Shown: positions 3,652-32,965 of the stretch, piece by piece
Layout: each line of letters begins with the position of its first letter
Numbering within the stretch: position 1 is the first letter of the stretch
NCBI GenBank assembly: GCA_948436975.1
Contig: CAOJJB010000001.1
Coordinates: 80,095 to 144,094, forward strand
Direction: 5' to 3'
Length of the DNA: 64,000 nucleotides
Source of the DNA: an uncultured Clostridium sp.
GTDB taxonomy: Bacteria; Bacillota; Clostridia; TANB77; CAG-508
Translations under genes and position numbers: made by a program
Notes under the pieces: generated by a model
What the model saw: only the letters and a program-made list of their open reading frames with translations
The model's database searches: none
What the model was told of the DNA's origin: nothing

Positions 3652-3939
3652 TTATTTTCGTTTACTGAGTATCTCTGTGAATTCATTTAACTCAGTGATC
3701 AGAATTTCTTCTGAAATATTCTCTTGATGGAATTGAATGATAGTATTATCCATCAATGTGAATTTTTCATTCAATTCATTATCTACAAATTTGCTATATT
3801 TGCGAAGCTGTAATTGTAATTTCATCAAAGCTTTTTCAAGAGGTTTGTGCTGCTCGTGTTTACTGATGACAAAATTTACTTGAGCTAATAAATCCTGGCT
3901 GATAGTTGAGTACAATGTGATTGTTTTTGAATGTTCCAT
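3652..3939 (-). CDS. Small all-helical hypothetical protein (95 aa)
   Basis: I shortened the track ORF (3652..4017) to the ATG at complement 3937..3939 (MEHSKTITLY...), because AAGGAG lies 8 nt upstream on the minus strand. I recognised no family. It is one of only a few minus-strand genes here and looks slightly more GC-rich than its neighbours by eye. Confidence 0.55.
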   Translation of the reverse strand: MEHSKTITLYSTISQDLLAQVNFVISKHEQHKPLEKALMKLQLQLRKYSKFVDNELNEKFTLMDNTIIQFHQENISEEILITELNEFTEILSKRK

Positions 3940-11600: not shown

Positions 11601-12691
11601 CATTAGATTTAAGTAATAACTTAATATCAGGAAAATTAAATATTTCTGAACAACAATATATGAAATTATTCAAAAGAATGGAAGAATTTAATTTAGCAGG
11701 AAATCAAATTACAGATATAGAAAGCTTATTAATATATTTAGATTATATATCATCAGGAAATTATGCTAATTATTTAGCAAGAGAAGATACATTAAATATA
11801 AATTTAAATAATCAAGATATTGAATTAGTAATTAATGATAAAATAAGTTTAGAACAATATCCTACAACAATTGATGTAGAATTACCAAAAATATTTACAC
11901 AATTATTAGCAATAGATACAGAAAGAACAGGATTTGGTGAAACAAGCCAAAAAGGAAGAATAGAAGCCGAAGGAAAATATGTTACATTAAATACAAGAAC
12001 AGCAGGAGATAAAATAGGAAAAGTAGAAGTATTACCTATGAGTGGTAATGGAACAAAAGTGGATACATGTGTTGGAAGTGGAACAACAGCAACTATATAC
12101 TATACTGTTGAAGGAAATGCATCAAATCCAAATCCACCAGAGAACCCAGGAAATACAACAGATCCAGAAAATAAGCCAGTAGATCCAGGAAATATAATAG
12201 ATCCAGGAAACCCAGATGATTCAAACACAGGTGTTGATACAAGTAAGTTAGGATACAGAGTGGGAGAAGAATATTTAACAAATGTAGCAGCTATGACACC
12301 AGTTTCAGATTTCAAAACAATTTTACTAAATGGATTACAATATAATGTGGTAGTAACAAAAGATGAAAAAGAAGTTACATCAGGAAATATGATGACAGGT
12401 ATGTATGTAAAGATTTTAGATAAAGATGGAAATACAGTAGAAGATCAAAATGGAGACCTTTTAGTATATCAAGTAGTAGTAAAAGGTGATGTAAATGGAG
12501 ATGGAGTAGCAAATGCTTTTGATTCTAATTTAATAAAAGCATATAGAGTTGAAGTAACAAGATTAGAAGGAGCAGAATTTGAAGCAGCAGATATAAATAG
12601 TGATGGAAAAGTAGATGTTACAGATTCAAAACTATTATTATATCATAGAGCAGAAGTAGCAGGATATAACTTAAACTTTTCAAAAAAATAA
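8603..12691 (+). CDS. Secreted leucine-rich-repeat (internalin-like) protein with a long helical middle region and a C-terminal dockerin
   Basis: Signal peptide MKRKMLISIALIMIMLLNCMMPIMVNA. There are three blocks of about 22-aa LRRs, for example ITRLDLNEASITDLTDLDQFTELTHLELSGNNLTQ and LKRLSLAYNYISDISSLLDISTLKSLDLSNNLISG. A Pro/Asn linker reads NPNPPENPGNTTDPENKPVDPGNIIDPGNP. The C-terminus carries duplicated DVNGDGVANAFD and DINSDGKVDVTD Ca-binding loops. Confidence 0.8.
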   Translation: MKRKMLISIALIMIMLLNCMMPIMVNAVTGEEIQLNSNLYKAVKKSLTIQGIEFSADDVTHKLTLSNGTKSSITRLDLNEASITDLTDLDQFTELTHLELSGNNLTQTSNLNVLNNLSKLNYLDLSTNQLENVSDIKNLITTLQEKGTIILSGQQITSIEKVFVDGEEDSDNAETATFELPSILELAGYIKSNWKSTKSKAETSNDIAPFISVDSIPMYVTPDNNKISVNISSESGKGYKGLLEVNIHIYDDATEAGSAKNPNKAAENILNGSQFKLYYVVHDKSSEAITTMDTNLYYAIKEQLTAGQTVNSQLESYPYSVDKNGDIIYQTYTYTTSGNNRTLTNTKTGTNDYIYDYKTNILYKNNSGNKGAVVNTIVEPTIVNTADGNGTITSKEGYKVAYIGQEANKTLYIQAYDDAKTFVIDDLVLTNKITSLILNNKQIRDLDGIECFIGLTSKLNVSHNYLDNLTALYYMDAQKDSWEKQIVDKYNDYLRNRSYGNLSKSVENAKKVQEDINKNSQDITNAYNQIINLLVDASKLDATKENYEDEIKNKATSIEKILDSIYGYTDEQGKYQAGYVDKIKGYTDAGKAVKGNVDDLNKEISQMYNYLAKLYVIYNNEYKLTTLLSPNVNYITYDEYEKYDKATRESADTAKALVEEEIEYLKTLEAAGGLSDLDKELLKTAFSGLKFDSEEDKTPLADYFTKYLEENALGRVKSLELLDKFREIGIYSEMANYCLIKRMNKNTPSGYCYEEEYLENRIKELETEEIPTVLEHKMLEYVKNKTKYNQLGLSEVYDKYKNTKYTYKFETTAIEVSTCKGAYDRLHNQTPIIAGTNGYTSEQLIKNAKEAAKLLDTDTTQITSITNVVNKLAGNATRVISKVDLYEVIGSTTKYTSEVNKLFLYNQMMSLSNKLLTGDVSRYVTLPRLKNLDISYNAELEDISRISELETLYELNASYCYIGDIVNIDWTAMPNLKRLSLAYNYISDISSLLDISTLKSLDLSNNLISGKLNISEQQYMKLFKRMEEFNLAGNQITDIESLLIYLDYISSGNYANYLAREDTLNINLNNQDIELVINDKISLEQYPTTIDVELPKIFTQLLAIDTERTGFGETSQKGRIEAEGKYVTLNTRTAGDKIGKVEVLPMSGNGTKVDTCVGSGTTATIYYTVEGNASNPNPPENPGNTTDPENKPVDPGNIIDPGNPDDSNTGVDTSKLGYRVGEEYLTNVAAMTPVSDFKTILLNGLQYNVVVTKDEKEVTSGNMMTGMYVKILDKDGNTVEDQNGDLLVYQVVVKGDVNGDGVANAFDSNLIKAYRVEVTRLEGAEFEAADINSDGKVDVTDSKLLLYHRAEVAGYNLNFSKK
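12485..12665 (+). other. Dockerin module (type-I-like duplicated EF-hand loops) of the LRR protein
   Basis: GDVNGDGVANAFDSNLIKAYRVEVTRLEGAEFEAADINSDGKVDVTDSKLLLYHRAEVAG contains two DxNxDGxxxxxD loops, each followed by a helix. Confidence 0.8.
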
Positions 12692-12902
12692 AAGTAATTT
12701 GTAGTATATAAAATAAAATTTGTGAAAAAATATTAGTTAAGATTAATTTTATAGGGGAGTGCAAAGCACTTCCCAAACAAATAATATGTTTAAAAATATT
12801 TTTATTGTAAATAAATGTCAAATATACCAAAAAAAGGTATTGCAATTTAAAATAAGAAATGATATTCTTATAGTGTACAAGCAAAAGAGGAGAAGAATAA
12901 TT

Positions 12903-13820
12903 ATGAAAAAAAGTAAATTAATAATATTGCAATTATTTATTGCATCTGTACTAATCTGTACAAGTGTATATGCTGCTGTAAGTACGACTATAGGACTTTC
13001 AGTTTCTAATACATCTGTTAAAAGAGGTGATAAAGTTACTGTAACATTATCTTTGAAAGATGTAGATAGTAGTAAAAAAGTAACAAGTATTGATGGTTAT
13101 ATTAATTATAATACTAATATTTTTGAAACAATTAATGTTGATAGTATACAGAAAGATTCTGATGGTACTGTACAGATAGGAAATGAAAAATTGAAAGTAG
13201 AAGATGTAACAAATGCAACAGTAGAAGACTTACCAAGTTCATCAGCATATATAGCTTTTAATGGAGCACCATTAAGTGATGAAAACAATACAAGAATTGT
13301 AATTGATTTTAGTAGTGGAATTAATGCAAATACAGATTTATTAAAAATAGATTTTAAGGTAAAATCAGATGCTTCAATAGGAGAAATAAAAAATGCAATA
13401 ACTTATTCTAATTTTCATATAACAGCAGGATCAGAAGTAGTACAAGTTACAGAAAATATTAGCTTAAATATACAACAATCAGGAAATACCCAAAATCCAG
13501 ACCCTGATGAAAATAAGAATGAAAACAAAAACGAAAATATAAATGAAAATAACAATAAAAATGAAAACAAGAATGAAAATAAAAATGAGAATAAAAATGA
13601 TAGCAAAAATGAAAATAAAAACACAAATCAAAATATAAACAAGAATACAAATAAAAATATAAATAATACAACTAATATTTCAAATAGAAATATTAATGAC
13701 AATAGAGCATCAGGAATATTACCAGCAACAGGTGCAAAAGTTATAATATTACCAGCAATAGCTTTAATAATACTAGCATGTGTATGTTATAACAAATATA
13801 TAAAATATAAAGACATATAA
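12903..13820 (+). CDS. Cell-wall-anchored (LPATG) cohesin-like domain protein, a putative anchoring scaffoldin
   Basis: I shortened the track ORF (12759..) to the ATG at 12903 (MKKSKLIILQ...), which has agaggag about 8 nt upstream and begins a signal peptide. A beta-rich module of about 165 aa reads VKRGDKVTVTLSLKDVDSSKKVTSIDGYINYNTNIFETINV...LLKIDFKVKSDASIGEIKNAITYSNF and fits the cohesin pattern. It is followed by an Asn/Lys spacer, then LPATG (13719..13733), a TM segment and the basic tail YNKYIKYKD. Confidence 0.65.
   Translation: MKKSKLIILQLFIASVLICTSVYAAVSTTIGLSVSNTSVKRGDKVTVTLSLKDVDSSKKVTSIDGYINYNTNIFETINVDSIQKDSDGTVQIGNEKLKVEDVTNATVEDLPSSSAYIAFNGAPLSDENNTRIVIDFSSGINANTDLLKIDFKVKSDASIGEIKNAITYSNFHITAGSEVVQVTENISLNIQQSGNTQNPDPDENKNENKNENINENNNKNENKNENKNENKNDSKNENKNTNQNINKNTNKNINNTTNISNRNINDNRASGILPATGAKVIILPAIALIILACVCYNKYIKYKDI
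13506..13702 (+). repeat. Low-complexity Asn/Lys/Glu-coding microsatellite-like tract (NENK repeats), a putative wall-spanning spacer
   Basis: Imperfect reiterations of aatgaaaa(c/t)aa(a/g) encode NENKNENKNENINENNNKNENKNENKNENKNDSKNENKNTNQNINKNTNKNINN. Confidence 0.8.
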
Positions 13821-14019: not shown

Positions 14020-15492
14020 ATGAAGACAAATTATAAAATTTTTTTAGCTATATTATTTGAATTAATAATTTTAATAGGAATAGTAATAATAGGATTTAAA
14101 ATAAATAAAAAAGAAATAAATGTTGTAAATAAAAATATAGAACTTAATGCAGAGAATTTTGAAACAGAACAAATAAACAATACATTAAAAGAACATGAAA
14201 TAGGGTCATATAATTTAAAAAAAGATGCTACTATTGTATTAAAGTATATAGATAGAAATACTAATGAGGAAATATCAGAAGAAGTAATAAAAAAAGGAAG
14301 AATACTTGAAGAATATGACATTTCAGAACAACAAAAAGAAATATCTGGATATGTAATAGTTGAAAAGCCAGAATCAACAGGAAGATATACAAAAGAAAGA
14401 GAAGAAAAAGTATATACTTATGCAAGAGAAAGTAAAGTAATAGTAAATCATATAGATAAAAATACAGGAACAAAGCTAGAAGTATCAGAATACATTGGAA
14501 AAGAAGGTGATAAATATACATCTTCACCAAAGGATATAGAAAATTATGCAATTATAGAAGTACCTGAGCAAGAAACAGTAACAATGACAAAAGAACCAGT
14601 AACAATAAATTATTATTATGATAAAATATTAACAGGAGCAATAGAAAAACATATAGATATTACTACAAATGAATTATTAGAAACAACATTATATGAAGGA
14701 TCAGAAGGAGCAGAGTATAATACAGTATCGAAAGAATTTGAAGGATATAGTTTAGTAGAAAGTATGTTACCACAAAATGCAAATGGGCAATTAGGAGTAG
14801 AAGTAATAGAAATTAAATATTATTATATAAGAAAAATTTCAGTGAAAGTAGAATATATAAATAATATAACAAAACAACAAATAGAAAATAGTACAGAAAT
14901 AATAAGGGGAATTGAAGGAGATTCTTATAAAACAGAAGAAAAAAATTTTAATGAGTATAAACTTATATCTAAAACAGATAATATAACTGGAGAAATGAAA
15001 GCTATACAAAATGAACAAGGAAAAATAAATGATGAGATATTAGTGCAATATTATTATGTTAAAAAATCAGGAGGAGTGAAAGAACAACATATAGATAACG
15101 AAACAGGAGCTTTGTTAAAGGAAATAGTATATACAGGATATGAAGGAGAGAAATTCAATACTAATCCTAAATTTTTTGAAGGTTATGTATTATTAAATAA
15201 AGAAATACCTACAGAAATAGAAGGTATAATGAAAGAAAAAGATATAATAATAAAATATTATTATAAAAAGTTAGATCAAATAAAAGGCGAAGTTGCTAAT
15301 ATAGATAGTGAAGATACAGATAATAGTATGGTGGATACAGGAGATATATTAGTAATTACATCAATAGTAGTAGTTATTATATTAATTTTAATAAATACAT
15401 ATGAATTTAGTAGAGAACATAGAGAAAAAATAAAGAAAAAGATACAAGAAAAAGGATATAGAAAATTAGTAAGAAGGAGAATAAAAAGGTAG
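14020..15492 (+). CDS. Surface protein with five MucBP-like repeats, an N-terminal TM and a C-terminal TM plus basic tail
   Basis: Five repeats of about 65-75 aa have the form (V/I)xxx(Y/H)IDxxTxxxL....Y.G.EG..Y......F.GY.L.........(I/V)..YYY, for example VIVNHIDKNTGTKLEVSEYIGKEGDKYTSSPKDIENYAIIE...VTINYYY. The C-terminus reads MVDTGDILVITSIVVVIILILI followed by the very basic tail REHREKIKKKIQEKGYRKLVRRRIKR. Confidence 0.7.
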   Translation: MKTNYKIFLAILFELIILIGIVIIGFKINKKEINVVNKNIELNAENFETEQINNTLKEHEIGSYNLKKDATIVLKYIDRNTNEEISEEVIKKGRILEEYDISEQQKEISGYVIVEKPESTGRYTKEREEKVYTYARESKVIVNHIDKNTGTKLEVSEYIGKEGDKYTSSPKDIENYAIIEVPEQETVTMTKEPVTINYYYDKILTGAIEKHIDITTNELLETTLYEGSEGAEYNTVSKEFEGYSLVESMLPQNANGQLGVEVIEIKYYYIRKISVKVEYINNITKQQIENSTEIIRGIEGDSYKTEEKNFNEYKLISKTDNITGEMKAIQNEQGKINDEILVQYYYVKKSGGVKEQHIDNETGALLKEIVYTGYEGEKFNTNPKFFEGYVLLNKEIPTEIEGIMKEKDIIIKYYYKKLDQIKGEVANIDSEDTDNSMVDTGDILVITSIVVVIILILINTYEFSREHREKIKKKIQEKGYRKLVRRRIKR

Positions 15493-21312: not shown

Positions 21313-21370
21313 TAATAAGTAAGTAGAATAGGATTAAAATACTATAATTTTATTAAGTTAGGAGAAACAA

Positions 21371-24300
21371 ATGAAGAGGAAAAAAAATATGCTAAAAAGA
21401 ATATTAGTAATAGCATTTTTATTAAGTATATTATCTAATCACTTAATGATTTTAGGTGAGGTAGCTAATATTGCTTTGGCAACAGATGTTGAGTGGAAAT
21501 CAGATTTTACAAGTGATATAAATACTGATAATTCACAAGAAAAAAATATTGAAGAAGAGGGGGAAAAATCTGACAGTTCTGAAGAAATCTTAGAAGAACC
21601 TAATAATACTGTTTCAGATGATATACCTGAAAATGAAGTAATTGTAGAAGATACAACTTCAGAGGAAAATGAAAAATCAGATGAAAGTATTCAAGATAAA
21701 ACACTTACAGAAGATGAAATAAAGAAACTTCAAGAAATTAAAGTTGATACTGAATTAGAAGTCAATAAAGTTATTAGATTTGATAATGAAGTTGAAAAAG
21801 GTGTTTTAGCAGATGTAATACTTAAATTTAATATTGATACAAAAGAATTTACTATCGATAATATGAATATCAATTTTGAACTTCCAAATATATTAGGAAT
21901 ATTGCCAAATAAATTTAAATTTGAAGAAATGTCTGATAATATAAGTTTTTCAAGAGAAGATGGTACAAATAGAATATCTTTAAATGCGAAAGATGTTTTA
22001 AATAATAATGAAGAAGTTAGATTAATTTTGGTTTATTCAGAAGATGCTTTTGATGGAAAAGAAATAAAAATTCTTGGAGATGTAATATTAGAAAAAGCAG
22101 GATATCCTATAAATCAAAGTTTTGAAGCAAATAAAGAATTACCAGATAGTACTGAAATCTTTGCAACTTATGGAATAAAATCAGAAAATGCTAGTAAATA
22201 TAAAGGTTATTTGTATGCAAATACTGTGTTAGAAAATAAAAAAGATTTTCCTTATACAATAGTTGATGTAATAGATATTAAAGATAAAGACTTTATAGAC
22301 GAAATTATAGTAGAAAATAACATAGATAAAATAGTATTAGATACAAAGGAAATAGATTTAATTAATTTAGTTACATATAAGTCTACTTCAATAAATGTTG
22401 AGGAATTTAACTCTATATTAGGAGAAGATGGATATATAGAAATATATAACCAATTAAATGAAAAAATTGGTGAAATTAATAAAGAAACTCAAATAAGAAA
22501 TAATAGTTATGTATTTGATTATAGTGTTGATGTAGATAGAGTAACTTTTAAAATTAAAAATATTAAAGAAAATCAAACTTTAAATATTAAAAATGAAAAG
22601 ATAATTAAGGGTACAGATACATTTTCAAGAGATTATGTAAAATCATTTAAAACAATAAAATCACAGACTATAAATAAGGTAGCAAAAATTATTGATGATA
22701 ATGAAGTTGTAGTACAAAGTATTAATACAGAGAATAATATAAATTTAGAAGAAACTGAATCAAAAATGACATTAGAAATGAGTACAAAAGATTTGATTAC
22801 AACTGATACAAATGAAGTAACATTTACTACTGTTTTAAAAAATAATGAAGAGGCTTATGAATTATTTAGAAATCCAGTGATTTCTATTGAATTACCAGAA
22901 GCGGTGGAAAGTGCAGAAATTAAAAATGTTAATTTATTATATAAGAATGGTTTATCATTAGAAAATTGGAACGTTATAAAAAATGAACATGGTTTAAATG
23001 AAATACAGGTTGCTTTATCTGGAACACAAAATGAATATGAACCAGGTACATTAATCGAAGGAACAACAGTATTAGTTACAGCTGATTTACATTTAAATAA
23101 AATTACAGCTAATGGAAAGAGTACAGTAAAACTTAGATATACAAATGAAATAGGAACTAATATTTCTTATGCAGTAGTTGGTAAGAATAGTGAAGATATT
23201 GAAGTTAATTATGTTTCAAGAAGTGGTATATTAAAGGAAACTAAATTAGAAAACTTTAATAAAGAAAATGAAGTTTTAGTAGGATATGATGATCAATCAA
23301 TAATAGGAAAAATAGACACAGATACTGTAGCTAAAACAGCAAAAGTTTCAACAGTAATAATGAATAATTATAATAATGATATAAGAAATGTTGAAATAGT
23401 AGGTAAAATACCATTTGTTGGTAATACAAAAGATGGAGTAGATTTAAATACAACATTTAATACAAGTCTTGCTGATAAAATTGATCTAAATGGATTAGTT
23501 GGAAAAGTATATTATTCTTATGAAGAAGATCCAGATAGAGTTAATGGAAATTGGATGGAAACTGTTAATGATTTTTCGCAAGTAAAGAGCTTTAAAGTTA
23601 TTTTAAATAATTCTAGTATGAAGGTTGGAGAACAAGTAGAGGTTTCATATAACTTAAATATTCCAGAAAATGTTGGATATAATGAAACTGCATATAATTT
23701 GTTTACAACTTACTATAATTTAAATAATGAGGAAATATCAGATTCTTCTATTGTTGGATTAGAAACAGAGGTTAAAGATATTCAAATTGAAGATTGCCAA
23801 GTAGTAGAGGAAACACCTGAATTAACTATAGGAACACAAGTTACAAGAGCAGGAACAGCATTAGAGGAGAACGAAGAAGTAAATGAAGGGCAGATTTTAA
23901 GATATAATGTAGTAGTAACAAATAAATCTAATAAACCAATAACAAATATTAATTTAAAGGGGTTAGCGGAAAATACTAATAGCTATTATTGGCATACATT
24001 TACTATAACAAGTAGTACAGATGGTGAGGAAACTTTAACAGGAGAATGGAAAGAGGATTTAGAAGGTAAACATTTATATGAAGAGTTAAAAATAGAAACT
24101 TTAGCTCCTGGTGAAACAGCTAATTTTGAATATCAAGTAAAAGTAAAACATTTAAATGAGATTAAAAATCCAGAGATATATGGAAAAGTTTTAATTTCAG
24201 CTGATGGCATAGAAGAAAAAGAATATAATACTATTAAAAATAAGATAAGAAAAGCAAAAATAGAATTAAGTGTAACAAGAAATGGTCATGAAAATGCTAA

Positions 24301-27300
24301 TTTAATGATAATTAATTCCAATGATATGTACAATTTAACAGCAACAGTAAAGAATATTTCTGGTATGGATTTGAAAGATGTAAAAGTAAATGTTATGTTA
24401 CCAGAATTAATTGAGTATAGTTCAACTGAAACAGAAATTTATAACATGAATAATTCAGCTATAATAACATCTGAAAATATTTCAACAGGAACAATGGTTA
24501 CTTTTTCTTTACCAACAATGACAAAAGATGAAATCATAAAACTTAATATTGCTGCTAATACAGGCAGTATAGACCTAAATTTGAGTGAAACTACTGTAAC
24601 AGTTATAGGAAATGCAAATATTGATGGACAGTTATATTTAAGTAATGACTATACAAGAACTGTTACTCAAAGTGAAACAAGTTTTAAGATAAATTATACA
24701 TCAAATCCTGAAAATGGTTCAATAGTGAAACATGGAGATGAGATTTTATATAATATTGAGATTCAAAATGTAGGTTTTGCATCTGCGCTTCTTGATTTTA
24801 CAGATTTTCTGCCATTTGGATTAAATATCAATAGTGCTATAGTGAGTTTTCCAAATGGACGACAAGAGAATTTGGAAATTACAGAATATAATTATTTTAT
24901 GGTAGACTATATATTAAAACCACAAGAAAGTGTAATTATAAATGTAAGTAGTAATGTTAATATAGAGGATTTGAGAACAAATCAGAAAACAATAGAAAAT
25001 AGACTTGAACTAGAGCCAACAGCTAATGTAAATGATATAGAAGATATTATATTTTATATAGATCCAAGTCAACTAATTCCAGATGAAGAAGATAATAATG
25101 TAAATAATGATGATAATATTCCTTCAGATGATGATAATATAGAAGAACCAGATTTTCCTTTAGATGAGGATAATGAAAACAAAGAAGATAATAATCAAAC
25201 AGAGGAAGATAATAATATTAATGAAGAAATAAATAATAATACACAAGATAATGATGTAAAAGATGACACAAAAGGTGATATAGAAAATAATATAATACAA
25301 GATGATACAAATGATACTGTAAAAGACAATGAATCAGAACTAGATTTCTTTATTGATAATAAAGAAAATATTAATAAAGATAGAGTAGAAGAAACAGTAA
25401 ATTCAATAAAATATTCAATTTCAGGAAAAGCATGGTTAGATGATAATAAAGATGGTTTGTATGACAATGAAGAATTATTGAAAAATACAACAGTAATGTT
25501 ATTTAAGATTGATAGTTTAAGTTATGCAAATGTAAAAGATTCAAATTTGATTAATAAAATTAGTACAAATGATGATGGGGAATATATATTTAATAATTTA
25601 GAAGAGGGTAAATATGTTGTAGCTTTTGAGTATGATAGTGTTAAATATGAAGTTACAACTTATCAAACAAATGAAAAATCAGCCTCAAAGAATTCTAAAG
25701 TAATTTCGAAAGAATTAGTAATAAATAATGATAAACGATTGTACGCTGTATCAGATATAATTGATATTTCAAATAAAAACATTATAAATATAAACATGGG
25801 ACTTAAAGAAAAATCTGATTTTGATATGGGAATTACGACTTATGTAAAAAAAGTAACAATAGAAAATCAAAAGGGTATACAAACTGAAGAATTTTGTGAA
25901 ACTGATAGAATTGCTAAAATTGAAATTCCATCAAAACAATTAAATGCATCTAAGGTACAAATAGAGTATATAGTAAAAGTAACTAATAATGGTAAAATGG
26001 CAGGATATGTAAATCAAATTGCTAATTATATACCTAAAGGATTAAATTTTGATAATTCTCAAAATTTGAATTGGCAATTAGGACAAGATGGTGTTTTATA
26101 TAGTTCATCACTAAACAAAGTTTTGATAGATCCAGGTGATTCAAAAGAAATAGTTTTAATATTAACTAAAGCTATGAATGAAAATAGTACAGGTATTTAT
26201 AAAAATATAGCAGAAATTGTAGAAGCGACAAATGATTTACAATTAGAGGATTATAATCAAAATAATAATAGTTCAACAGTAGAATTATTATTAAGTATAA
26301 AAACAGGTGCTATATATTATATATTAGTTATAATAATTGCGTTAGCAATAGCTTTTATTGCAATGCTTATAGTAAGTAAATTAATTAAAAATGATAGAAC
26401 TAAAATTAATTTTATTAATAAAATTATTATAGTAGTTTCATTAATAGTTATTATTTCACTTTGTATAATAATAAAAGTATATGGAGCAGATTATACAATA
26501 GGTACTACTGATGGTAATTTTATATCATGTTGGCCTATTACAAAATTTATTACACATAATTTTCAATTAAAACAAACAGTGGGACTTAATGAGGTAAATA
26601 CAGATTATTGGAATGTAAAAACAGATATGTGTATAGCTGGTGCAGATATTAGTGGTCTATCAGCTTCAACATCGCGTTATATTGCTAGTATTACAGATAT
26701 AAGGAACAAGACTCAATTTACTACTAAATCTATCAAAGGATCAAAAACAAATAAGACACCAGCAGCAGCGAGATTAGCATATTTAAGTTATGTTGCTGAA
26801 ACAGGAAAAAAATATGATGGTAGTACTTATAGTTCAGATATAGCTTTAGGAGCTTATAAAAGTATGTTTACTGTATATTGGTGGTATGATAGAGCAGGTT
26901 TAGATAAAGTATTTAATGTAACTTTTTCAGGTAATCCTCAAGTAGAATATGAAGGTAATATACCATCAGCAAATGCTTTTTTAGAAGATGCTAAAACATA
27001 TGCAAACAACTTAACAGCAGCTGGTACAGTAAGTAATACTACAAATAAAACAAAATTAGAATATGTATCTAGCAAAGATGCTTTTGGGCCTATTAAATGT
27101 AAATTTCCAAATAATGCTGTTTTACAGATAGCAAAAGATGGTAGAAATTTTACTAATTATAGTGGTAAAATAAAAAACAGTAGTGGAGCAGAGGTAAATT
27201 ATAACAGTACAAACTTTAAAAACTTTAATGATAAAAATTTTTATATACCAATGTCTGAGTTAAAAAATGTAGATTTAACAAAAGTGAAAATAAGAATTAA

Positions 27301-30300
27301 AGCAGATCAAAAATATTATAGTGCTAGAATATTAGCTGTTTTTGCTCCTGGTGATGGACAAAATAGAGCTGAGATGAGAGGATATGAGGAAACAGAAACT
27401 ACAAAAGTAGATTGGACATTAAATGCAATAGCAGATGTTAGTGTAAGTAAAACTGTTTATAAAAAAGCTAAAAGTGATAATACAAGTGCTAGTAATATAG
27501 ATTCAAAAAAGAAAAATAATGTAATACCATATGTAGATAGAAAAGATTGTGTTTATTTTAATATAACAATATCAAATAATGGAGCCCCAATATCTTTAAA
27601 GTTAACTGATACATATAATGCAAATCATTATGAATTTATTAGAATGTTTAAAGGGACTAATGCTAATGCAAGTAATGAAAGGGTACAAAAGACTTCTGGA
27701 AAATTGGAAAAAACAATTACAGTACCTACTGGAAATACAGTTTATACTGTTGTTCTTAGAATTAAAGAAAATCTTGCTATGAATCAACTGGATAAGAACT
27801 TAACTAATAAAGCTAAAATAAGTGATTTTAAAATAGGTAATAAACCTGTACAAAATAAAAGAGGAAATAAAGAGGAAGATTCTGACTATGTAAAATGTAA
27901 ACGTTATTCAATAGGTATAACCAAAGAGGCAGGAGATGTTTATGAGGTTGGAGATACTATAGACTATAAAATTAAAGTGAAAAATAAATCAACAGACAGT
28001 AAATATGGAGCAATAACATATAAAATTAAAGAAAGTATTCCAGATGGTTTTGAATACAAAGGCGGATTAAATAGCAGTTATGAAGCAAGTGGTACAGTAA
28101 AGGCTAAGAGTGGAGAAAATGAAAAAGATTATACTGTAAAAATGAGAGTAACAGATAAATTATTAAATACATCAGCAACAACTAGAAAAAATACAGTACA
28201 AATAACATCAGCTAAAAATAGAAATGGTGTAGAATTAAAAGGTAAATATTTAGAAAATTCAACTTTGAAAGCTGAAAAAACTGTAAAAATACTTGGATAC
28301 AATATGAGCATATCAAAAACAGTAGAAGTGGTATCGGACAATAAAGGAAATCCAACTGGAGATAACACGATGTGTGAATTAGGAGATATAATTACATACA
28401 AGATTGATATAAAAAATACAGGTACACAAGGTAATAGTGGAAATATTCATAATATTGTTTTAGAAGATATATTTAAAACTGAAGAACTTAAATTTATATC
28501 ATCAGAAGGTACAGGTTGGACACATGGAGCTAATTACACATATGCAGGACCACTGGCACCAGGAAGTACAGCAACATTAAAATTGAAATTTGAAGTTATA
28601 TTAGAAAGTAAGAAAAAAGTAAAAATTACAAATACAGGAAAAGTTACAAGTGCTACAAATAAAAATGGTATAAAATTAACACATATTGTACCAAAAGAAT
28701 CATCTGTATCAGTAGAATATCAAACATATGATATGGGAGTATGGAAATATATTACAAGTAGTAATTCAGTATCAATATCAGGTAGGGATAAAAAGACAAA
28801 TAAGGAAAAATATAATTCACCAATAGAAGTAGAGAAATATGATAATGTAGTATATACCTTAAAAGTTCAAAATACTGGAACAACAAAACTAAAAGACATA
28901 ACATTTGTAGATACATTAGAAAATGGTTTAAAATATAATTCAGAAATATCTATGAAGAAATATAATGGTCAAGGAAAAGAAGATTCAACAAGTTCTCAAA
29001 TTACACGAACAGTGAATAATAATGAAATTACATATTCATATCCAAATGAATTATTACCAAATGAGGCAATAGTAATAGAATTAAAATGCGATATTTCAAT
29101 GAGTAATATGTATTTATTAAATTTAAAAAATGAAATAAAACTAACTGTTGTTAAAAACAGAAACGATATAGATTTAGTAAAAAAAGATTTAGTAAATTAT
29201 ACAAATTATGAAAATGAGGATTATGTAAGATTAAAGAACTTAGTTATATCAGGAAAGGTTTGGATAGATAAAAATCAAGATGGTATAATGGATAGTGGGG
29301 AAGAAAATTTATCAGGAATTCAAGTAATACTTCATGATGATACAAATAAAAAAGTAGCAACAACATATACAACAACAGATGGTTCATATAAATTTTCAGA
29401 AACAACTGGAGTAACTGCAAATGGAAGTGCAAGTAATAAAAAAATGGTTGAAGGTGGAAATAATTCAGGAAGAGTTATTAAAGCAACAAATAGAGATGAT
29501 GCTACAGGAAACTATAATGAAAAAAGTCAGTATATAAACTATTATATAGAGTTTTATTATAATGGTGTAAAATATAATTCAACAGTTTATGCAGGAGATA
29601 ATGGAAAAGCTAATATAACGGGATCAGATAATTCGATATCAACAAATTATATGAAAGATTCAAATGCTTATGAATTTTCTGAAATAAGAGATGAACTTAA
29701 TAATAGTTTTGAAACTATACAATATAATTCTGGAATTAAAGGAATAGTAGAGGGAACTAATAATATTAAAAATATTTCTTATACTAAAGACAGACATAAT
29801 AGTACATTAGACTTTACAGAAACAGTAGGAATAAGTTCTTATAGTTTCATACAAAAAGGTAGACCATATAATAATCAGTTAGCAAATGGAAACAATATAA
29901 ACATGTTATTTTTCTCTCAAACAGGAGAAACAGAATATTTGAAATATATTAATTTAGGATTACAAGCAAGGGAACTAGATATAGAACTAAAGAATGATGT
30001 ATATAATTTAAAGACAACTGTAAATGGTATACAAATGAATTATGAATTTAATCAAGGAAAAGTACCTAATTCACCATATGGCGGAGAATATGTAACAGGT
30101 GGAGTAAATAAACCTATAAATTACACATTTAGGTTATATACTTCAGACTATTACTATAAACACACAATGTATGAAAATCAAGATGTTGTAAAATATAAAG
30201 AACATACAGAATTGAACACAGAAATAACATATAAAATGACTATAAAAAATAATAATACAAAATATGATAATAAAGCTTATACAAAAATAAGAGAAATAGT

Positions 30301-32965
30301 AAATTATTATAGTCCTGAATTTAAGAAATATGATCCAAATAATAATACTAAAGTTATAAAAGTACAAAAAGATGGATATTTAAAAGAAGAAACAATAAAT
30401 AAAGTACAAGCTAGATATGAATACATTAATAAAAATGGAGTTAAAACAACAGGAACAGCAACTTTAAGTAATACACCAATTTATTCAAGACATTCAAAAT
30501 TAAATATTGGACAAAAATATAATGTTATGTATCTAAGTGGATTTGATGATATAAAACTAGCAAGAGGAGAAGAACTAAATGTTTATATTACATTTGTAGT
30601 AGATACTGAGGATGGAACAGAAGCTACAAATTTAAAATTAGGAAATAAAAATAATATTGCAGAAATAAATGCATATTCAACATATTACGAAGAAGGAAAT
30701 AAAGCAGCAGGATTTATTGATATGAATTCAAATCCAGGTAACTTAGGATTAAAAACAGATTCAAATAAGCCAGCAGGAATTGAAAATGGAGATATAGAAG
30801 ATTATAGTAATTATGAAAATGATACTTATAAAACAGGTATAAGATTAGCAACTTCAAATATACCAGACAATCCACCAGACAATCCGCCAGATAATCCACC
30901 AGGTGGAGATTTGGAAAGAATTATAAGAGGTAGTGTTTGGGATGATGCTAGATCAGAAGTAATAGAAAAAGATAACAATAAACAATATATAGGAAATGGT
31001 TTAAAAAATGTAGGAACAAGCTTAGATAAGAGAATAGAAGAAGCAGCGTATAATAAAAAGCAAAATGGAAATAAAAAACTAGTAGATGAATCAAAAGATA
31101 GTCCTGTTGAAAATGTAAAAGTAACTTTACTAGAAATAGTAAAAATACCAAATAGTAACTCACAAGGTGAGAAGATTTATGAACAAAATATTTCTACATG
31201 GAGTGATGCTATTACAACAAGAAGAAGTGGAACTGATGGTTCATATGAATTGAAATCTTTCATTCCAGGAAGTTACATAGTAAGATTTGATTATGGTGAT
31301 GATAAATCTAATGAAGTATATAATGGACAGGAATATAAATCAACAAAATACTATAATGTAGATAATTTGATAACATCAGCACCAGATTCAGGAGATAAAG
31401 TATTAGCAAAACTTGAAGAAGAAAAATATTCTGATGCTAGAGATGATGAAATAAGAAGATTAGAAGTAATAAGATGGAGTGAAGTTGTAAATAACCAAAA
31501 AACAGCAGAAGCACAAAAACCAATAGATCATGATGCAGAATTCTTAAAAAATACTTGTATGAATGCTAATACAGTTACATTCCCTGTAAGAGCTGAAAAA
31601 ACAACATATGATAAATTACAATATAACTTTAATGAGTATAGTACAATGATGAAAAATAATTCTAGATATGAAATAAAAAATATAGATTTTGGTATAGAAT
31701 ATAGGCCAGAAACAAATGTATATATAAAAGAATTTATATCAAGAATCCAATTGACAACTTCTGATGGAAAAACTTTGGCAGATATAAAATTTGATAATGT
31801 TTATGAAGAAAATACAAAAATAATTATAGGTACAACTTTAAATGAAAAAGATTCAATTGGACATGAGAATTTACAATACTTACCAACAGCACAAAATGTA
31901 AAAGGTTTAGCTTATTTAAATGTTGATGAAGATTTATTACAAGGATGCACAGTAGATATAACATATGTTTTCTCTGTACATAATGATAGTGAGGTAGACA
32001 GAATCAATAAAAGGTTGTATAATTTAAGATATAAACAAGATGCTAATGGTTATGAAGAATATTTCGATGATGATTATACAGCAGCGGGAACAGCTAGAAA
32101 TGAGTTATACAGTAAGTATTATGTACCAAATACATCATATAGAACTAAAGATAAATTATCATTTAATGGAACTGATGGATATTATGGAAAATACTTAGGA
32201 GAAACATATTATTCAGGAAAAGTAGGTTCAGAAGATATAGTGGCAGAATTAAAAGTCGATAAAATATTAGATTATGTAGATAATCACATGACAATGGAAA
32301 CAAGTAAAAATGCAGTAACAGATCAATATTGGAGAACAATGACAGATGAAGAGTTAAAAGATGGTGGATTACTATCAGGAACTATATATTCAGAAGTAGT
32401 AGAGAAATTAAAAGAAAATGGAGAAATTCTAGAAAAAGTATATAATAAATTAATAGATGTTAATGGAATTGCATACGATATAAGTGAAAAACATAATTTA
32501 GCAATATCAGTAGATGATAGAATGTCTGCAAATGATAGTAATAATATGAATAAACTTTTATCTATATTCTTAAAACCAAAAGTTGCAAATAAAACTGAAT
32601 GTGCAGGAAATATATATATGGTATCTTCAAAAGTGCTTTCAGGTGAAAGTGAAACTGAAAATATGACATATGATAATAGTTCTGAAATAATTCAATATAC
32701 ATCAGTAACTGGTAGAGTAACTAGACTTGGAACAACAGTTGGAAATCTAGAAATGAAGACAGAAGGTAGGACATATGAAGATGACTCTGACTTTACAGAA
32801 AGAGTAATATTAACTCCACCTACTGGACTAGAAATAACTAAATATTATATAAGTCTAGCGATGGATCAAATAATAATTGTTACTATATGTATAGGTGTTA
32901 TTATAGTAGCAATAATACTAAAGAAAAATATTAAACATATCAGTTTTAAGAAATTTTATAAATAA
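21371..32965 (+). CDS. Giant (3864 aa) surface adhesin-like protein with DUF11-type repeat domains and SdrD-B-like domains; contains an internal sorting-signal/signal-peptide junction
   Basis: N-terminal signal peptide. DUF11-like motifs include GQILRYNVVVTNKSNKPITNINLKG, GDEILYNIEIQNVGFA, GDTIDYKIKVKNKS, GDIITYKIDIKNTGTQ and YDNVVYTLKVQNTGTTKLKDITFVDTL. SdrD-B-like motifs include ISGKAWLDDNKDGLYDNEE...TNDDGEYIFNNLEEGKYVV, ISGKVWIDKNQDGIMDSGEE...TTDGSYKF and IRGSVWDD...GTDGSYELKSFIPGSYIVRF. An acidic linker spans about 25075..25345 and a (PDNP)x3 repeat spans 30863..30901. The C-terminus reads TPPTG (32813..32827), then a TM and the tail KKNIKHISFKKFYK. Confidence 0.8.
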   Translation: MKRKKNMLKRILVIAFLLSILSNHLMILGEVANIALATDVEWKSDFTSDINTDNSQEKNIEEEGEKSDSSEEILEEPNNTVSDDIPENEVIVEDTTSEENEKSDESIQDKTLTEDEIKKLQEIKVDTELEVNKVIRFDNEVEKGVLADVILKFNIDTKEFTIDNMNINFELPNILGILPNKFKFEEMSDNISFSREDGTNRISLNAKDVLNNNEEVRLILVYSEDAFDGKEIKILGDVILEKAGYPINQSFEANKELPDSTEIFATYGIKSENASKYKGYLYANTVLENKKDFPYTIVDVIDIKDKDFIDEIIVENNIDKIVLDTKEIDLINLVTYKSTSINVEEFNSILGEDGYIEIYNQLNEKIGEINKETQIRNNSYVFDYSVDVDRVTFKIKNIKENQTLNIKNEKIIKGTDTFSRDYVKSFKTIKSQTINKVAKIIDDNEVVVQSINTENNINLEETESKMTLEMSTKDLITTDTNEVTFTTVLKNNEEAYELFRNPVISIELPEAVESAEIKNVNLLYKNGLSLENWNVIKNEHGLNEIQVALSGTQNEYEPGTLIEGTTVLVTADLHLNKITANGKSTVKLRYTNEIGTNISYAVVGKNSEDIEVNYVSRSGILKETKLENFNKENEVLVGYDDQSIIGKIDTDTVAKTAKVSTVIMNNYNNDIRNVEIVGKIPFVGNTKDGVDLNTTFNTSLADKIDLNGLVGKVYYSYEEDPDRVNGNWMETVNDFSQVKSFKVILNNSSMKVGEQVEVSYNLNIPENVGYNETAYNLFTTYYNLNNEEISDSSIVGLETEVKDIQIEDCQVVEETPELTIGTQVTRAGTALEENEEVNEGQILRYNVVVTNKSNKPITNINLKGLAENTNSYYWHTFTITSSTDGEETLTGEWKEDLEGKHLYEELKIETLAPGETANFEYQVKVKHLNEIKNPEIYGKVLISADGIEEKEYNTIKNKIRKAKIELSVTRNGHENANLMIINSNDMYNLTATVKNISGMDLKDVKVNVMLPELIEYSSTETEIYNMNNSAIITSENISTGTMVTFSLPTMTKDEIIKLNIAANTGSIDLNLSETTVTVIGNANIDGQLYLSNDYTRTVTQSETSFKINYTSNPENGSIVKHGDEILYNIEIQNVGFASALLDFTDFLPFGLNINSAIVSFPNGRQENLEITEYNYFMVDYILKPQESVIINVSSNVNIEDLRTNQKTIENRLELEPTANVNDIEDIIFYIDPSQLIPDEEDNNVNNDDNIPSDDDNIEEPDFPLDEDNENKEDNNQTEEDNNINEEINNNTQDNDVKDDTKGDIENNIIQDDTNDTVKDNESELDFFIDNKENINKDRVEETVNSIKYSISGKAWLDDNKDGLYDNEELLKNTTVMLFKIDSLSYANVKDSNLINKISTNDDGEYIFNNLEEGKYVVAFEYDSVKYEVTTYQTNEKSASKNSKVISKELVINNDKRLYAVSDIIDISNKNIININMGLKEKSDFDMGITTYVKKVTIENQKGIQTEEFCETDRIAKIEIPSKQLNASKVQIEYIVKVTNNGKMAGYVNQIANYIPKGLNFDNSQNLNWQLGQDGVLYSSSLNKVLIDPGDSKEIVLILTKAMNENSTGIYKNIAEIVEATNDLQLEDYNQNNNSSTVELLLSIKTGAIYYILVIIIALAIAFIAMLIVSKLIKNDRTKINFINKIIIVVSLIVIISLCIIIKVYGADYTIGTTDGNFISCWPITKFITHNFQLKQTVGLNEVNTDYWNVKTDMCIAGADISGLSASTSRYIASITDIRNKTQFTTKSIKGSKTNKTPAAARLAYLSYVAETGKKYDGSTYSSDIALGAYKSMFTVYWWYDRAGLDKVFNVTFSGNPQVEYEGNIPSANAFLEDAKTYANNLTAAGTVSNTTNKTKLEYVSSKDAFGPIKCKFPNNAVLQIAKDGRNFTNYSGKIKNSSGAEVNYNSTNFKNFNDKNFYIPMSELKNVDLTKVKIRIKADQKYYSARILAVFAPGDGQNRAEMRGYEETETTKVDWTLNAIADVSVSKTVYKKAKSDNTSASNIDSKKKNNVIPYVDRKDCVYFNITISNNGAPISLKLTDTYNANHYEFIRMFKGTNANASNERVQKTSGKLEKTITVPTGNTVYTVVLRIKENLAMNQLDKNLTNKAKISDFKIGNKPVQNKRGNKEEDSDYVKCKRYSIGITKEAGDVYEVGDTIDYKIKVKNKSTDSKYGAITYKIKESIPDGFEYKGGLNSSYEASGTVKAKSGENEKDYTVKMRVTDKLLNTSATTRKNTVQITSAKNRNGVELKGKYLENSTLKAEKTVKILGYNMSISKTVEVVSDNKGNPTGDNTMCELGDIITYKIDIKNTGTQGNSGNIHNIVLEDIFKTEELKFISSEGTGWTHGANYTYAGPLAPGSTATLKLKFEVILESKKKVKITNTGKVTSATNKNGIKLTHIVPKESSVSVEYQTYDMGVWKYITSSNSVSISGRDKKTNKEKYNSPIEVEKYDNVVYTLKVQNTGTTKLKDITFVDTLENGLKYNSEISMKKYNGQGKEDSTSSQITRTVNNNEITYSYPNELLPNEAIVIELKCDISMSNMYLLNLKNEIKLTVVKNRNDIDLVKKDLVNYTNYENEDYVRLKNLVISGKVWIDKNQDGIMDSGEENLSGIQVILHDDTNKKVATTYTTTDGSYKFSETTGVTANGSASNKKMVEGGNNSGRVIKATNRDDATGNYNEKSQYINYYIEFYYNGVKYNSTVYAGDNGKANITGSDNSISTNYMKDSNAYEFSEIRDELNNSFETIQYNSGIKGIVEGTNNIKNISYTKDRHNSTLDFTETVGISSYSFIQKGRPYNNQLANGNNINMLFFSQTGETEYLKYINLGLQARELDIELKNDVYNLKTTVNGIQMNYEFNQGKVPNSPYGGEYVTGGVNKPINYTFRLYTSDYYYKHTMYENQDVVKYKEHTELNTEITYKMTIKNNNTKYDNKAYTKIREIVNYYSPEFKKYDPNNNTKVIKVQKDGYLKEETINKVQARYEYINKNGVKTTGTATLSNTPIYSRHSKLNIGQKYNVMYLSGFDDIKLARGEELNVYITFVVDTEDGTEATNLKLGNKNNIAEINAYSTYYEEGNKAAGFIDMNSNPGNLGLKTDSNKPAGIENGDIEDYSNYENDTYKTGIRLATSNIPDNPPDNPPDNPPGGDLERIIRGSVWDDARSEVIEKDNNKQYIGNGLKNVGTSLDKRIEEAAYNKKQNGNKKLVDESKDSPVENVKVTLLEIVKIPNSNSQGEKIYEQNISTWSDAITTRRSGTDGSYELKSFIPGSYIVRFDYGDDKSNEVYNGQEYKSTKYYNVDNLITSAPDSGDKVLAKLEEEKYSDARDDEIRRLEVIRWSEVVNNQKTAEAQKPIDHDAEFLKNTCMNANTVTFPVRAEKTTYDKLQYNFNEYSTMMKNNSRYEIKNIDFGIEYRPETNVYIKEFISRIQLTTSDGKTLADIKFDNVYEENTKIIIGTTLNEKDSIGHENLQYLPTAQNVKGLAYLNVDEDLLQGCTVDITYVFSVHNDSEVDRINKRLYNLRYKQDANGYEEYFDDDYTAAGTARNELYSKYYVPNTSYRTKDKLSFNGTDGYYGKYLGETYYSGKVGSEDIVAELKVDKILDYVDNHMTMETSKNAVTDQYWRTMTDEELKDGGLLSGTIYSEVVEKLKENGEILEKVYNKLIDVNGIAYDISEKHNLAISVDDRMSANDSNNMNKLLSIFLKPKVANKTECAGNIYMVSSKVLSGESETENMTYDNSSEIIQYTSVTGRVTRLGTTVGNLEMKTEGRTYEDDSDFTERVILTPPTGLEITKYYISLAMDQIIIVTICIGVIIVAIILKKNIKHISFKKFYK
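26294..26488 (+). other. Internal junction: sorting-signal-like (SIKTG + TM + basic) followed immediately by a signal-peptide-like segment (basic n-region + h-region + VYG|A)
   Basis: aa 1642-1706 read SIKTG-AIYYILVIIIALAIAFIAMLIV-SKLIKNDRTKINFINK-IIIVVSLIVIISLCIII-KVYG|ADYTIG. All of this is in frame, with no stop, ATG or RBS in between. Confidence 0.65.

Follow-up and report, generated by a model that had tools for sequence, protein, structure and literature searches.

Closest described systems and the fused adhesin gene

In viral polyproteins, for example in the structural regions of flaviviruses, stop-transfer helices alternate with internal signals, and signal peptidase, located on the opposite side of the membrane, parts the consecutive ectodomains. 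A bacterial counterpart is reportedly the fbcH gene of Bradyrhizobium japonicum, attributed to work by Thony-Meyer et al. of 1989 and 1991, which is said to encode a cytochrome b-c1 precursor that is cut in two at a signal peptide in its interior. Here we describe a giant gene of an uncultured gut Clostridium sp. whose single open reading frame (ORF) of 3864 amino acids holds two complete secreted adhesin modules, A and B, joined by a pair of hydrophobic segments. The gene lies on a stretch of 64,000 nucleotides (contig CAOJJB010000001.1, positions 80,095 to 144,094; hereafter the window) and, as judged by comparison with its relatives, represents a genuine in-frame fusion, fixed in evolution, of the two genes of a conserved adhesin operon. 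As in fbcH, one bacterial ORF would give rise to two membrane or periplasmic proteins, which signal peptidase presumably parts at a signal peptide within the frame, whereas fbcH serves a respiratory complex of a Gram-negative organism, has no sorting-signal-like motif and encodes unrelated proteins. Viral polyproteins differ in their unrelated sequence and in depending on the machinery of the eukaryotic endoplasmic reticulum, while in the present case two products would derive from a recent gene fusion.

The closest known layout was that of the N-terminus of the streptococcal Zmp/IgA1 proteases. Zmp proteins possess a signal peptide, an LPXTG motif and two hydrophobic segments, the second of which has been proposed as a signal peptide with a signal peptidase site (S2; PMC3518915). 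The fused protein resembles them in having, within one ORF, a signal peptide, a sorting-signal-like motif, two membrane segments and a large ectodomain after the position of S2 (PMC3518915). However, Zmp has a true LPXTG preceded by a short part, whereas in the fused protein the corresponding motif is SIKTG and an adhesin module of ~1600 residues lies upstream of it; moreover, the downstream module of the fused protein has a C-terminal anchor of its own, and its two-gene origin can be traced in relatives. Neither an HExxH motif among the 3864 residues nor a match to any protease family of Pfam was found. Since both LPXTG and HExxH are missing, the fused protein is laid out like Zmp but is not a member of that family. 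The fusion is not a new principle either, given that Zmp has the same helix arrangement and that precursors split by signal peptidase are known. A search of the literature returned no description of the A/B adhesin operon or of its fused form, and nothing relevant on polyproteins with internal signal peptides or sortase sites.

Thioester, isopeptide, ester domain (TIE) proteins are surface proteins of Gram-positive bacteria. Fibrillar adhesins and TIE proteins share with the fused protein a giant size, a signal peptide, a tip, a stalk of CLIPPER/DUF11 and CnaB-type (SdrD-B) domains and a C-terminal anchor (PMC12617251). The known ones are single-module proteins, whereas the fused ORF comprises two complete modules joined by a membrane hairpin; in addition, its C-terminal motifs are non-canonical as compared with LPXTG and its thioester match is weak. 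In substrates of the sortase SrtB of Clostridium difficile, as here, a motif with TG at its end stands before a membrane helix and a basic tail, and the xPPTG of module B comes near to their (S/P)PXTG (PMC4155245). They differ from the window, which has TPPTG and SIKTG, and from other members of the family, in which the T is swapped for F or Y.

Layout and authenticity of the ORF

The fused gene and the parts of the protein that flank the junction were located as follows.

21371..32965, + strand: fused A-B adhesin gene, a single uninterrupted ORF of 3864 aa, precursor of ~436 kDa
21360-21364, + strand: Shine-Dalgarno sequence AGGAG of the giant ORF, 6 nt 5' of the ATG at 21371, read from the sequence
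21371..21481, + strand: N-terminal signal peptide of module A, aa 1-37, MKRKKNMLKR followed by a hydrophobic core and ALA↓T; cut site (arrow) predicted by the -3/-1 rule
21482..26305, + strand: ectodomain of module A, aa 38-1645, homologous to free-standing gene A; Pfam DUF11/CLIPPER and SdrD_B
26486..32962, + strand: module B, aa 1706-3864, ~243 kDa, homologous to free-standing gene B (HMMER, alignment A1)
32813..32827, + strand: TPPTG motif, aa 3815-3819, before the C-terminal anchor of module B
32870..32962, + strand: C-terminal membrane helix, aa 3834-3850, and basic tail KKNIKHISFKKFYK; Kyte-Doolittle 2.79

Basic residues were abundant at both ends of the protein, with six K/R among the first 10 residues and six in the tail. 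The whole sequence was scanned for hydrophobicity (Kyte-Doolittle, 19-residue window, threshold of 1.8), and the threshold was exceeded in four places only, at residues 11-29 (2.25), 1651-1669 (3.28), 1685-1703 (3.26), and 3832-3850 (2.79). A first-pass annotation of this DNA, made from the sequence alone, had credited the ORF with a signal peptide at its own N-terminus and with a C-terminus composed of TPPTG, a helix and a basic tail; both were seen in the sequence as well as in the hydrophobicity scan. Its placement of the internal junction was also correct, codon 1642 beginning at nt 26294 and codon 1706 finishing at nt 26488.

The long frame might be suspected of being an artefact or a product of decay, that is, two ordinary genes run together by a sequencing or assembly error or by a recent inactivating mutation. 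Most relatives do have two genes, and 18 of the split pairs described below are one stop codon short of fusion, so a single base error could mimic one. Nevertheless, the identical 3864-aa protein was present on at least three other contigs, one of them from an independent Logan assembly (SRR17684630; 14,144 bp) that showed 0 mismatches with respect to the window. Four other GTDB species (L004-L007) also had the fusion, as did several proteins from metagenomes with 30-60% identity to that of the window, and these relatives are too diverged for a shared sequencing error. Furthermore, the GC content of the window is 26%, a composition at which an open frame of 11.6 kb cannot occur by chance, and both halves are still open over this length. 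The explanation by artefact or decay was thus effectively refuted.

Anatomy of the junction

The two modules meet in the order S1642-I-K-T-G1646, A1647...V1668, S1669 KLIKNDRTKINFIN K1684, I1685...I1701, K-V-Y-G1705 and A1706 DYTIG, which corresponds to four consecutive elements.

26294..26308, + strand: SIKTG motif, aa 1642-1646; [ST][IVL]xTG is conserved at the end of gene A family-wide
26309..26374, + strand: helix 1 of the hairpin, aa 1647-1668, 22 hydrophobic residues, Kyte-Doolittle 3.28; former C-terminal anchor of gene A, running from outside to inside
26375..26422, + strand: cytoplasmic basic loop SKLIKNDRTKINFINK, aa 1669-1684, 16 residues including 5 K/R and 1 D
26423..26485, + strand: helix 2 and c-region, aa 1685-1705, IIIVVSLIVIISLCIII-KVYG, Kyte-Doolittle 3.26; former signal peptide of gene B

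The second half of the junction displayed the layout of a signal peptide, with an n-region (KNDRTKINFINK), an h-region (IIIVVSLIVIISLCIII) and a c-region K-V-Y-G↓A with small residues at -3 and -1. A signal peptidase I site is accordingly predicted between G1705 and A1706, and after such a cut module B would start with ADYTIGTTDGNFISCWPITK. In the loop SKLIKNDRTKINFINK, what was once the basic tail of A appears to run into what was once the n-region of the signal peptide of B, and the distribution of charges around the hairpin fits the positive-inside rule. The first-pass annotation had recognized a Sec signal peptide in this second half, and its n-, h- and c-regions were all present and homologous to the N-termini of free gene-B proteins. 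The first half had been taken for a Gram-positive sorting signal; the layout of xxxTG, helix and basic patch was recovered, but the status of sortase signal was not established, SIKTG having no proline.

The same architecture was found in all 12 fused junctions available, the window included: a motif, a hydrophobic helix (20-24 residues), a loop rich in K/R (12-18 residues), a second hydrophobic stretch (17-20 residues) and a small-x-small site. The motif was mostly xxKTG, with ISIRTG, ISISTG and a degenerate LKISKK as the other forms, and the loops of the 11 junctions other than that of the window were likewise short and rich in K/R. The helices themselves had diverged, and yet [VTA]-x-[AGS] stood straight after helix 2 in every case (VYG↓A, VYA↓A, TYS↓Y, TYA↓I, VIA↓D, AYA↓K, VYA↓G, VLA↓E, VYA↓A, VSA↓Y, TYA↓D, and ADA↓A). 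On a short contig (L077), a separate gene B begins with MMSFINKIIIIVSLVIIVALCLIIKEYG after several in-frame stops, and this N-terminus is near-identical to the K-INFINKIIIVVSLIVIISLCIIIKVYG of the window. At the level of homology, the ancestry of helix 2 was thus traced to a genuine signal peptide at the N-terminus of gene B, and that of helix 1 to a genuine C-terminal anchor of gene A.

It had also been stated that the junction contains no stop codon, ATG or Shine-Dalgarno sequence. Stop codon and Shine-Dalgarno sequence were indeed absent, but an in-frame ATG was found at codon 1665 (26363-26365), within helix 1. Module B might therefore also be translated alone from this codon, as MLIVSKLIKNDRTKINFINK followed by a hydrophobic core, in which case the fusion would be only apparent at the protein level. 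Such a start would yield a plausible signal peptide, and the methionine is kept in L004, L005, L006, and P0003. However, it is not found in L007, P0005, P0009, P0004, P0013, P0015, and P0052. No purine-rich Shine-Dalgarno sequence precedes codon 1665, AAAAG at 26473 being the sole G-containing purine run in the junction, whereas strong AGGAG or GGAGG sequences precede the start of the ORF itself and the starts of gene B in relatives. Internal initiation was consequently regarded as very improbable.

Split A and B genes in relatives

A 761-aa query across the junction (aa 1340-2100) returned two relatives only, P0001 and P0002. Both matched the upstream half alone and ended in ...ISVKTG or ...ITIKTG followed by a hydrophobic helix and KKRKEK or KKVLRKI, and on both contigs a large second gene lay directly downstream. 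In L002 the junction between the two genes reads ...KKVLRKI-TAA, 21 nt with GGAAGGGGG, and ATG-MEIKDKMRNIRNIIILAIIMIIGICAISIPYVTA..., gene B coding for 2125 aa, whereas in L003 the spacer is reduced to 3 nt (...KKRKEK-TAA-aca-ATG-MDKLKKLILIIIFSIICIGINVFCNNTFA...). Both loci were colinear with the two halves of the window by tblastn, their gene A matching module A. In L021 the spacer has 12 nt (...KKIYR-TAG-GAG-GGA-AAA-GTT-ATG-KNAKKIITIISIII...), and there a single base change in the stop codon would give a junction of helix, basic loop and helix like that of the window. P0002 had no signal peptide, and the contig of L002, which comes from Logan, seems to hold frameshifts or sequencing errors, yet its A/B junction was clean; housekeeping genes upstream of the pair (MreB, penicillin-binding protein; L002 1-9700) were called as several short fragments.

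When one genome per GTDB species was scanned with the module B alignment A1 as the query, 73 loci were returned; the use of a single protein as query had given no confirmed locus. All of them were metagenome-assembled genomes of uncultured gut Clostridia, such as Candidatus Scatovivens and Clostridium sp. CAG:567, CAG:780, and CAG:793. A script identified 70 A-to-B pairs in these loci. Gene A was typically 1650-2000 aa long and ended in [ILV][ST][ILV]xTG, a helix and a basic tail. Gene B started with its own signal peptide, its start being taken as the first start codon with a hydrophobic stretch within 45 residues, and the N-termini listed had the layout of signal peptides. The gap between A and B had a median of 13.5 nt and, for 67 of the 70 pairs, lay between -29 and +21; gene A stopped at TAA in 45 pairs and at TAG in 25, and 18 pairs were in frame with nothing but one stop codon between the two genes. 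Programmed read-through was considered and dropped, since the counts for the three A/B frames were 24, 33, and 13 and frame 0 was not enriched.

Free-standing genes were also obtained in an exhaustive HMMER search of 1.84 billion representatives with residues 1600-2620 as the query. Five free gene-B proteins (P0006, P0007, P0010, P0012, and P0018) had 2063-2250 aa and their own N-terminal signal peptides, whereas P0008 and P0014, consisting of module B only, started without a signal peptide and look 5'-truncated. Free-standing gene-A tails were represented by P0055, P0068, P0069, and P0071. Of the 127 C-terminal tails, of every kind, that were aligned from the loci, 72 had T as the residue at position -1 of the tail motif, a count in which the F and Y cases were xPP[FY]G tails of gene B pooled in by the script; in gene-A tails this residue was T in nearly all and Q in a few.

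Some further features of the split pairs were recorded. Many loci carried tandem double A-B pairs (L009, L011, L012, L016, L020, L022, L024-L027, and L029). In the second pair of these, gene B usually began at a GTG with an 8-nt overlap with the end of gene A (...RKGGV-stop / VFNM...), a conserved overlap that suggests translational coupling. In near relatives (L009, L011, L012, L014, L016, and L019-L028), both A and B terminated in KK[FVI]Y[KR], for example FKKFYK, KKVYK or KKIYR, and module B of the window also ends in this way (32948-32962); its conservation in the cytoplasmic tail suggests recognition by some partner. The anchor motif of gene B was xPPTG in near relatives and LPPFG (29 cases) or LPPYG in more distant pairs (L029-L076). 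PP-x-G with T, F or Y is no known sortase motif and may represent a different sorting or processing signal.

Fused relatives and origin of the fusion

In the GTDB scan, the four closest relatives had the fused form. Its length was 3911 aa in L005 and 4083 aa in L007, while the frame ran off the start of the contig in L004 and off its end in L006. The HMMER search added the full-length fused proteins P0003 (3865 aa, 49% identity), P0005 (4116 aa), and P0009 (3942 aa, 31%), as well as the junction-spanning fragments P0004, P0013, P0015, and P0052. On the contig of P0013, module A continues upstream across a scaffold gap of 10 N; on that of P0004 (L078), the sequence upstream of the A tail is unrelated or garbled and continuity is supported across the junction alone. 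The eight fused relatives with enough module-B sequence to be compared (L004-L007, P0003, P0005, P0009, and P0013) were 38-80% identical among themselves and to the window in the conserved C-terminal region of module B.

Gene order around the fused gene was conserved. The window shared comM-dprA-yraN upstream of it with L005, L006, and L007 and, in addition, a G5/3D gene with L005 and L007 and an M48 gene with L005. Downstream, the window, L005, and L007 have an AI-2E transporter gene, orf199 on the reverse strand and rpoB, the contig of L006 stopping within the fused gene. The same AI-2E-orf199 genes come immediately after the split pairs of L014, L021, and L028, and are followed in L021 and L028 by rpoB (90-92% aa identity); in fused and split loci alike, rpoB was next in all cases in which the retrieved sequence extended to it. 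It had been proposed to find out whether orthologous loci carry one gene or two, and both states occur at this position, fused in the window, L005, and L007 and split in L014, L021, and L028. Together with the 70 split pairs, the shared locus and the fused positional orthologues support the first of the interpretations put forward for this ORF, namely two adjacent adhesin genes fused seamlessly.

The split state was widespread and the fused one confined to near relatives of the window, from which fusion was concluded to be derived. A neighbour-joining tree of the C-terminal 1000 aa of B, built without bootstrap, placed the window, L004, L005, L007, and P0003 in one clade with P0005 and P0009 nearby, whereas P0004 and P0013 branched elsewhere and the split P0007 was nested among fused sequences. 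This hints at more than one event of fusion or fission. A C-terminal anchor followed by a signal peptide would be a fusion joint that the family has crossed at least once, perhaps several times. As to the route, the stop codon, the short spacer and the start codon would have been lost, and in many relatives fusion would need one base change in the stop codon.

Domain composition and predicted structure

Pfam matched five stretches of DUF11 (E 2e-20) and two of SdrD_B (E 7e-17) in the fused protein, and the DUF11 repeat family TIGR01451 was the only match among the 18,950 models of NCBIfam. DUF11 has been renamed CLIPPER and is an isopeptide-bonded stalk domain of fibrillar adhesins (PMC12617251). 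The order in gene A was signal peptide, stalk of CLIPPER/DUF11 and SdrD-B domains, xxxTG, membrane helix and basic tail; in gene B it was signal peptide, thioester-domain-like tip, stalk of CLIPPER and SdrD-B domains, xPPTG, membrane helix and basic tail. An internal duplication was considered and rejected, BLASTP of A against B giving shared domain types only (SdrD-B and DUF11) at no more than 30 bits. Two domains next to the junction were modelled.

25808..26305, + strand: last membrane-proximal CARDB/CLIPPER-like beta-sandwich of module A, aa ~1480-1645 (AlphaFold2, Foldseek)
26486..27460, + strand: N-terminal tip domain of module B, thioester-domain-like (alignment A4; AlphaFold pLDDT 73)

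The AlphaFold2 model of the junction covered aa 1441-1756 and was built from a 15-sequence alignment (A3). The beta-sandwich had pLDDT values mostly of 85-97 over model residues 41-200, and its closest folds by Foldseek were CARDB (3idu, E 1.4e-5) and CLIPPER/DUF11 (9ifr, E 2.1e-4). Its last strand is STVELLLSIK(T) (E194-204), so that S-I-K falls within the strand, T205 just after it, and G206 (G1646) acts as the hinge to the helix. Two helices followed, spanning residues 1647-1672 (model 207-232) and 1678-1707 (model 238-267), separated by a five-residue turn and with lower pLDDT values (62-78).

In the first ~370 residues of module B, Cys1754 was invariant and Gln1997 near-invariant across 13 homologues. 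The best folds in the Protein Data Bank (PDB) for the tip model were thioester domains (6fwy and 6fwv, from Enterococcus faecium TIE86 and a Bacillus anthracis TIE protein), as weak matches (E 5.5e-4, TM ~0.2), and Pfam gave no thioester-domain match in the fused protein. A search of PDB sequences with the conserved C-terminal 635 aa of module B returned no matches. Taken together, both modules look like fibrillar adhesins, B with a thioester-domain-like tip.

Topology and processing by signal peptidase

Topology was deduced from hydrophobicity, charge and the AlphaFold model. Module A would be exported by Sec (SecYEG) until helix 1 stops the transfer; the basic loop would remain in the cytoplasm; helix 2 would restart export, now of module B, and the last helix would anchor B. 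The junction, consisting of the anchor helix of A joined to the signal peptide of B, would insert as a helical hairpin. Both giant ectodomains would end outside, in the same way as the products of two separate genes, and this would explain why the fusion is tolerated. Signal peptidase I would then cut after VYG, between G1705 and A1706, freeing the N-terminal tip of B and leaving a product A of ~189 kDa, anchored by the remnant of the hairpin, and a product B of ~243 kDa, anchored by its own C-terminal helix. The fusion would under these circumstances be functionally neutral, or mildly useful in that the two partners would always be made in a 1:1 ratio.

Cleavage by signal peptidase I at this site, without sortase and giving two membrane-anchored adhesins, is the probable outcome. 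It is suggested by the retention of the -3/-1 site in all fused lineages, by the homology of helix 2 to the signal peptides of free gene B, which have similar small-x-small sites, and by the same layout having been proposed as cut by signal peptidase in streptococcal Zmp (PMC3518915). A fibrillar adhesin must, in addition, project its tip from the cell and needs a free N-terminus for this, and an uncut helix 2 would pin the putative adhesive tip, 48 residues off, to the membrane.

Alternatively, the hairpin might remain uncleaved and act as a permanent tether within a single polypeptide of ~430 kDa, B being held at helix 2 and at the C-terminal helix. The two helices are strongly hydrophobic (Kyte-Doolittle 3.3) and long enough to span the membrane, AlphaFold gave two long helices with a tight loop, and the hairpin was kept in the 12 fused junctions. 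However, the signal peptidase motif survived in these same junctions despite their divergence, helix 2 is homologous to N-terminal signal peptides that look cleavable in free gene B, and a tip whose Cys1754 is 48 residues away from the helix would be pinned at the membrane, which would defeat a stalk of more than 2000 residues. We regard such a tether as possible, though rather unlikely; between the two, cutting is favoured.

Certain points weigh against a cleaved junction that arose by simple loss of a stop codon. The core of helix 2 (17 residues, 20-30 in the AlphaFold helix) is long enough for a stable signal anchor, and the conserved small-x-small pattern could be inherited and not selected, several of the 12 junctions coming from close relatives. 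The present loops (12-18 aa) are shorter than those that simple read-through of the closest split forms would yield; the route may have been loss of the stop codon or a small deletion. The assignment of the tip of B to the thioester domains, with its TM of ~0.2, is also weak. Considered as a whole, the proposal of a natural surface polyprotein stands at about even odds, by which the 11.6-kb ORF would undergo export, stop-transfer, re-export and stop-transfer, be split by signal peptidase I into adhesins of ~189 and ~243 kDa, contain a plug-compatible joint and supply A and B as a 1:1 pair.

Evidence on sortase processing

Double processing would add sortase to signal peptidase: sortase would cut between T1645 and G1646 and at the T-G bond of TPPTG, linking both A and B to the wall, signal peptidase would cut between G1705 and A1706, and the hairpin would be discarded. 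Both halves do have the three-part layout of a sorting signal. In the window, motif, helix and basic tail stand at the C-terminus of module B, and in split relatives at that of gene A, the signal of A being internal in the window; the TG before the gene-A helix was strongly conserved across ~70 loci. The TPPTG of module B fits xPxTG, and xPPTG resembles the (S/P)PXTG of C. difficile SrtB (PMC4155245). The same genome also encodes a cohesin protein with LPATG, a helix and a basic tail (12759-13820), and a sortase is for this reason probably present in the organism.

On the other hand, SIKTG has no proline and fits no characterized class of sortase (LPXTG, (S/P)PXTG, NPQTN, LPNTA, and LAXTG). 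SrtB of C. difficile cuts (S/P)PXTG in vitro, and not NVQTG or LPETG (PMC4155245); NVQTG, the sole clostridial candidate without proline, is thus uncut by this enzyme. NCBIfam matched the DUF11 repeat family and no sorting signal, and a regular-expression search of 1.7 Mb, made up of the window and 76 loci, found no TLxTC signature of a sortase. Distant gene-B tails have F or Y in place of the T (LPPFG and LPPYG), which is not sortase-like, and the fused relative P0013 has lost TG altogether (LKISKK). Moreover, AlphaFold sets S-I-K-T in the final strand of a confidently folded domain with G as a hinge, so that conservation of TG can be structural. The conserved TG may accordingly have a structural role or serve some other system, and double processing appears doubtful.

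Implications of the fused form

Where a giant Gram-positive ORF contains an internal pair of hydrophobic segments, its single frame can encode two complete secreted proteins, and annotation of the present ORF as a single 3864-aa DUF11 protein would miss the real products. An anchor helix followed by a signal peptide would be a topologically neutral joint, at which adjacent genes for surface proteins can fuse, and perhaps split again, while keeping export; such a joint could be used for tandem surface display. The comparison also revealed an adhesin operon of two genes that is conserved across ~70 species-level genomes of uncultured Clostridia of the gut, the hosts being humans, rabbits, chickens, mice, and ruminants. 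The operon often occurs as a tandem duplicate, and its proteins have C-terminal motifs that are unusual but conserved ([ST][IV]xTG, xPP[TFY]G, and a terminal KK[FVI]Y[KR]). If the fusion is read as a Rosetta stone, it would be evidence of joint action, the A and B adhesins working as a 1:1 pair.

Other genes of the window

A protein of 419 aa without any Pfam match (5772-7031, + strand) ended in ...KYEVIYKDLNIEKNN and a C-terminal membrane helix. At least nine other loci had ORFs with very similar tails (KYDIAYKDLNIEK plus a helix) at a distance of up to ~10 kb on the downstream side of A-B pairs, and proteins of this type may be conserved neighbours of the adhesin operon. ORFs with the KYDIAYKDLNIEK-type tail were located at the following positions.

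L044, 21148
L048, 20122
L050, 17522
L052, 21267
L056, 18378
L058, 18003
L060, 17716
L064, 20415
L066, 16781

Several genes of the window code for proteins with cohesin or dockerin domains. The cohesin-domain protein mentioned above (12759-13820, + strand) has a long run of NKNE repeats and then ILPATG, a hydrophobic helix and YNKYIKYKDI; anchored to the wall, it probably acts as a scaffold for the neighbouring dockerin proteins. One of these, of 1362 aa, combines LRR repeats with a dockerin (8603-12691, + strand), and another, of 4044 aa, has NPCBM, Big_3, and dockerin domains (43796-55930, + strand). The latter lies directly downstream of rpoB-rpoC. The genes usually found downstream of rpoB-rpoC are rpsL-rpsG-fusA. 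The two giant dockerin proteins and the cohesin protein suggest surface display by cohesin and dockerin in a gut Clostridia genome of 26% GC.

The ORF-poor stretch at 56.9-64 kb was examined for rRNA, with negative results by Rfam and ARAGORN, and consists of another giant ORF (57157-63999, + strand) that runs off the end of the window, with at least 2281 aa and an N-terminal signal anchor; BLASTP showed no similarity of this ORF to the fused protein. Finally, a MucBP-repeat protein (14020-15492, + strand) has an N-terminal membrane helix and, at its C-terminus, ...MVDTGD followed by a helix and an unusually long basic tail (~30 residues), another layout of xxxTG plus helix without proline in the same genome as SIKTG.

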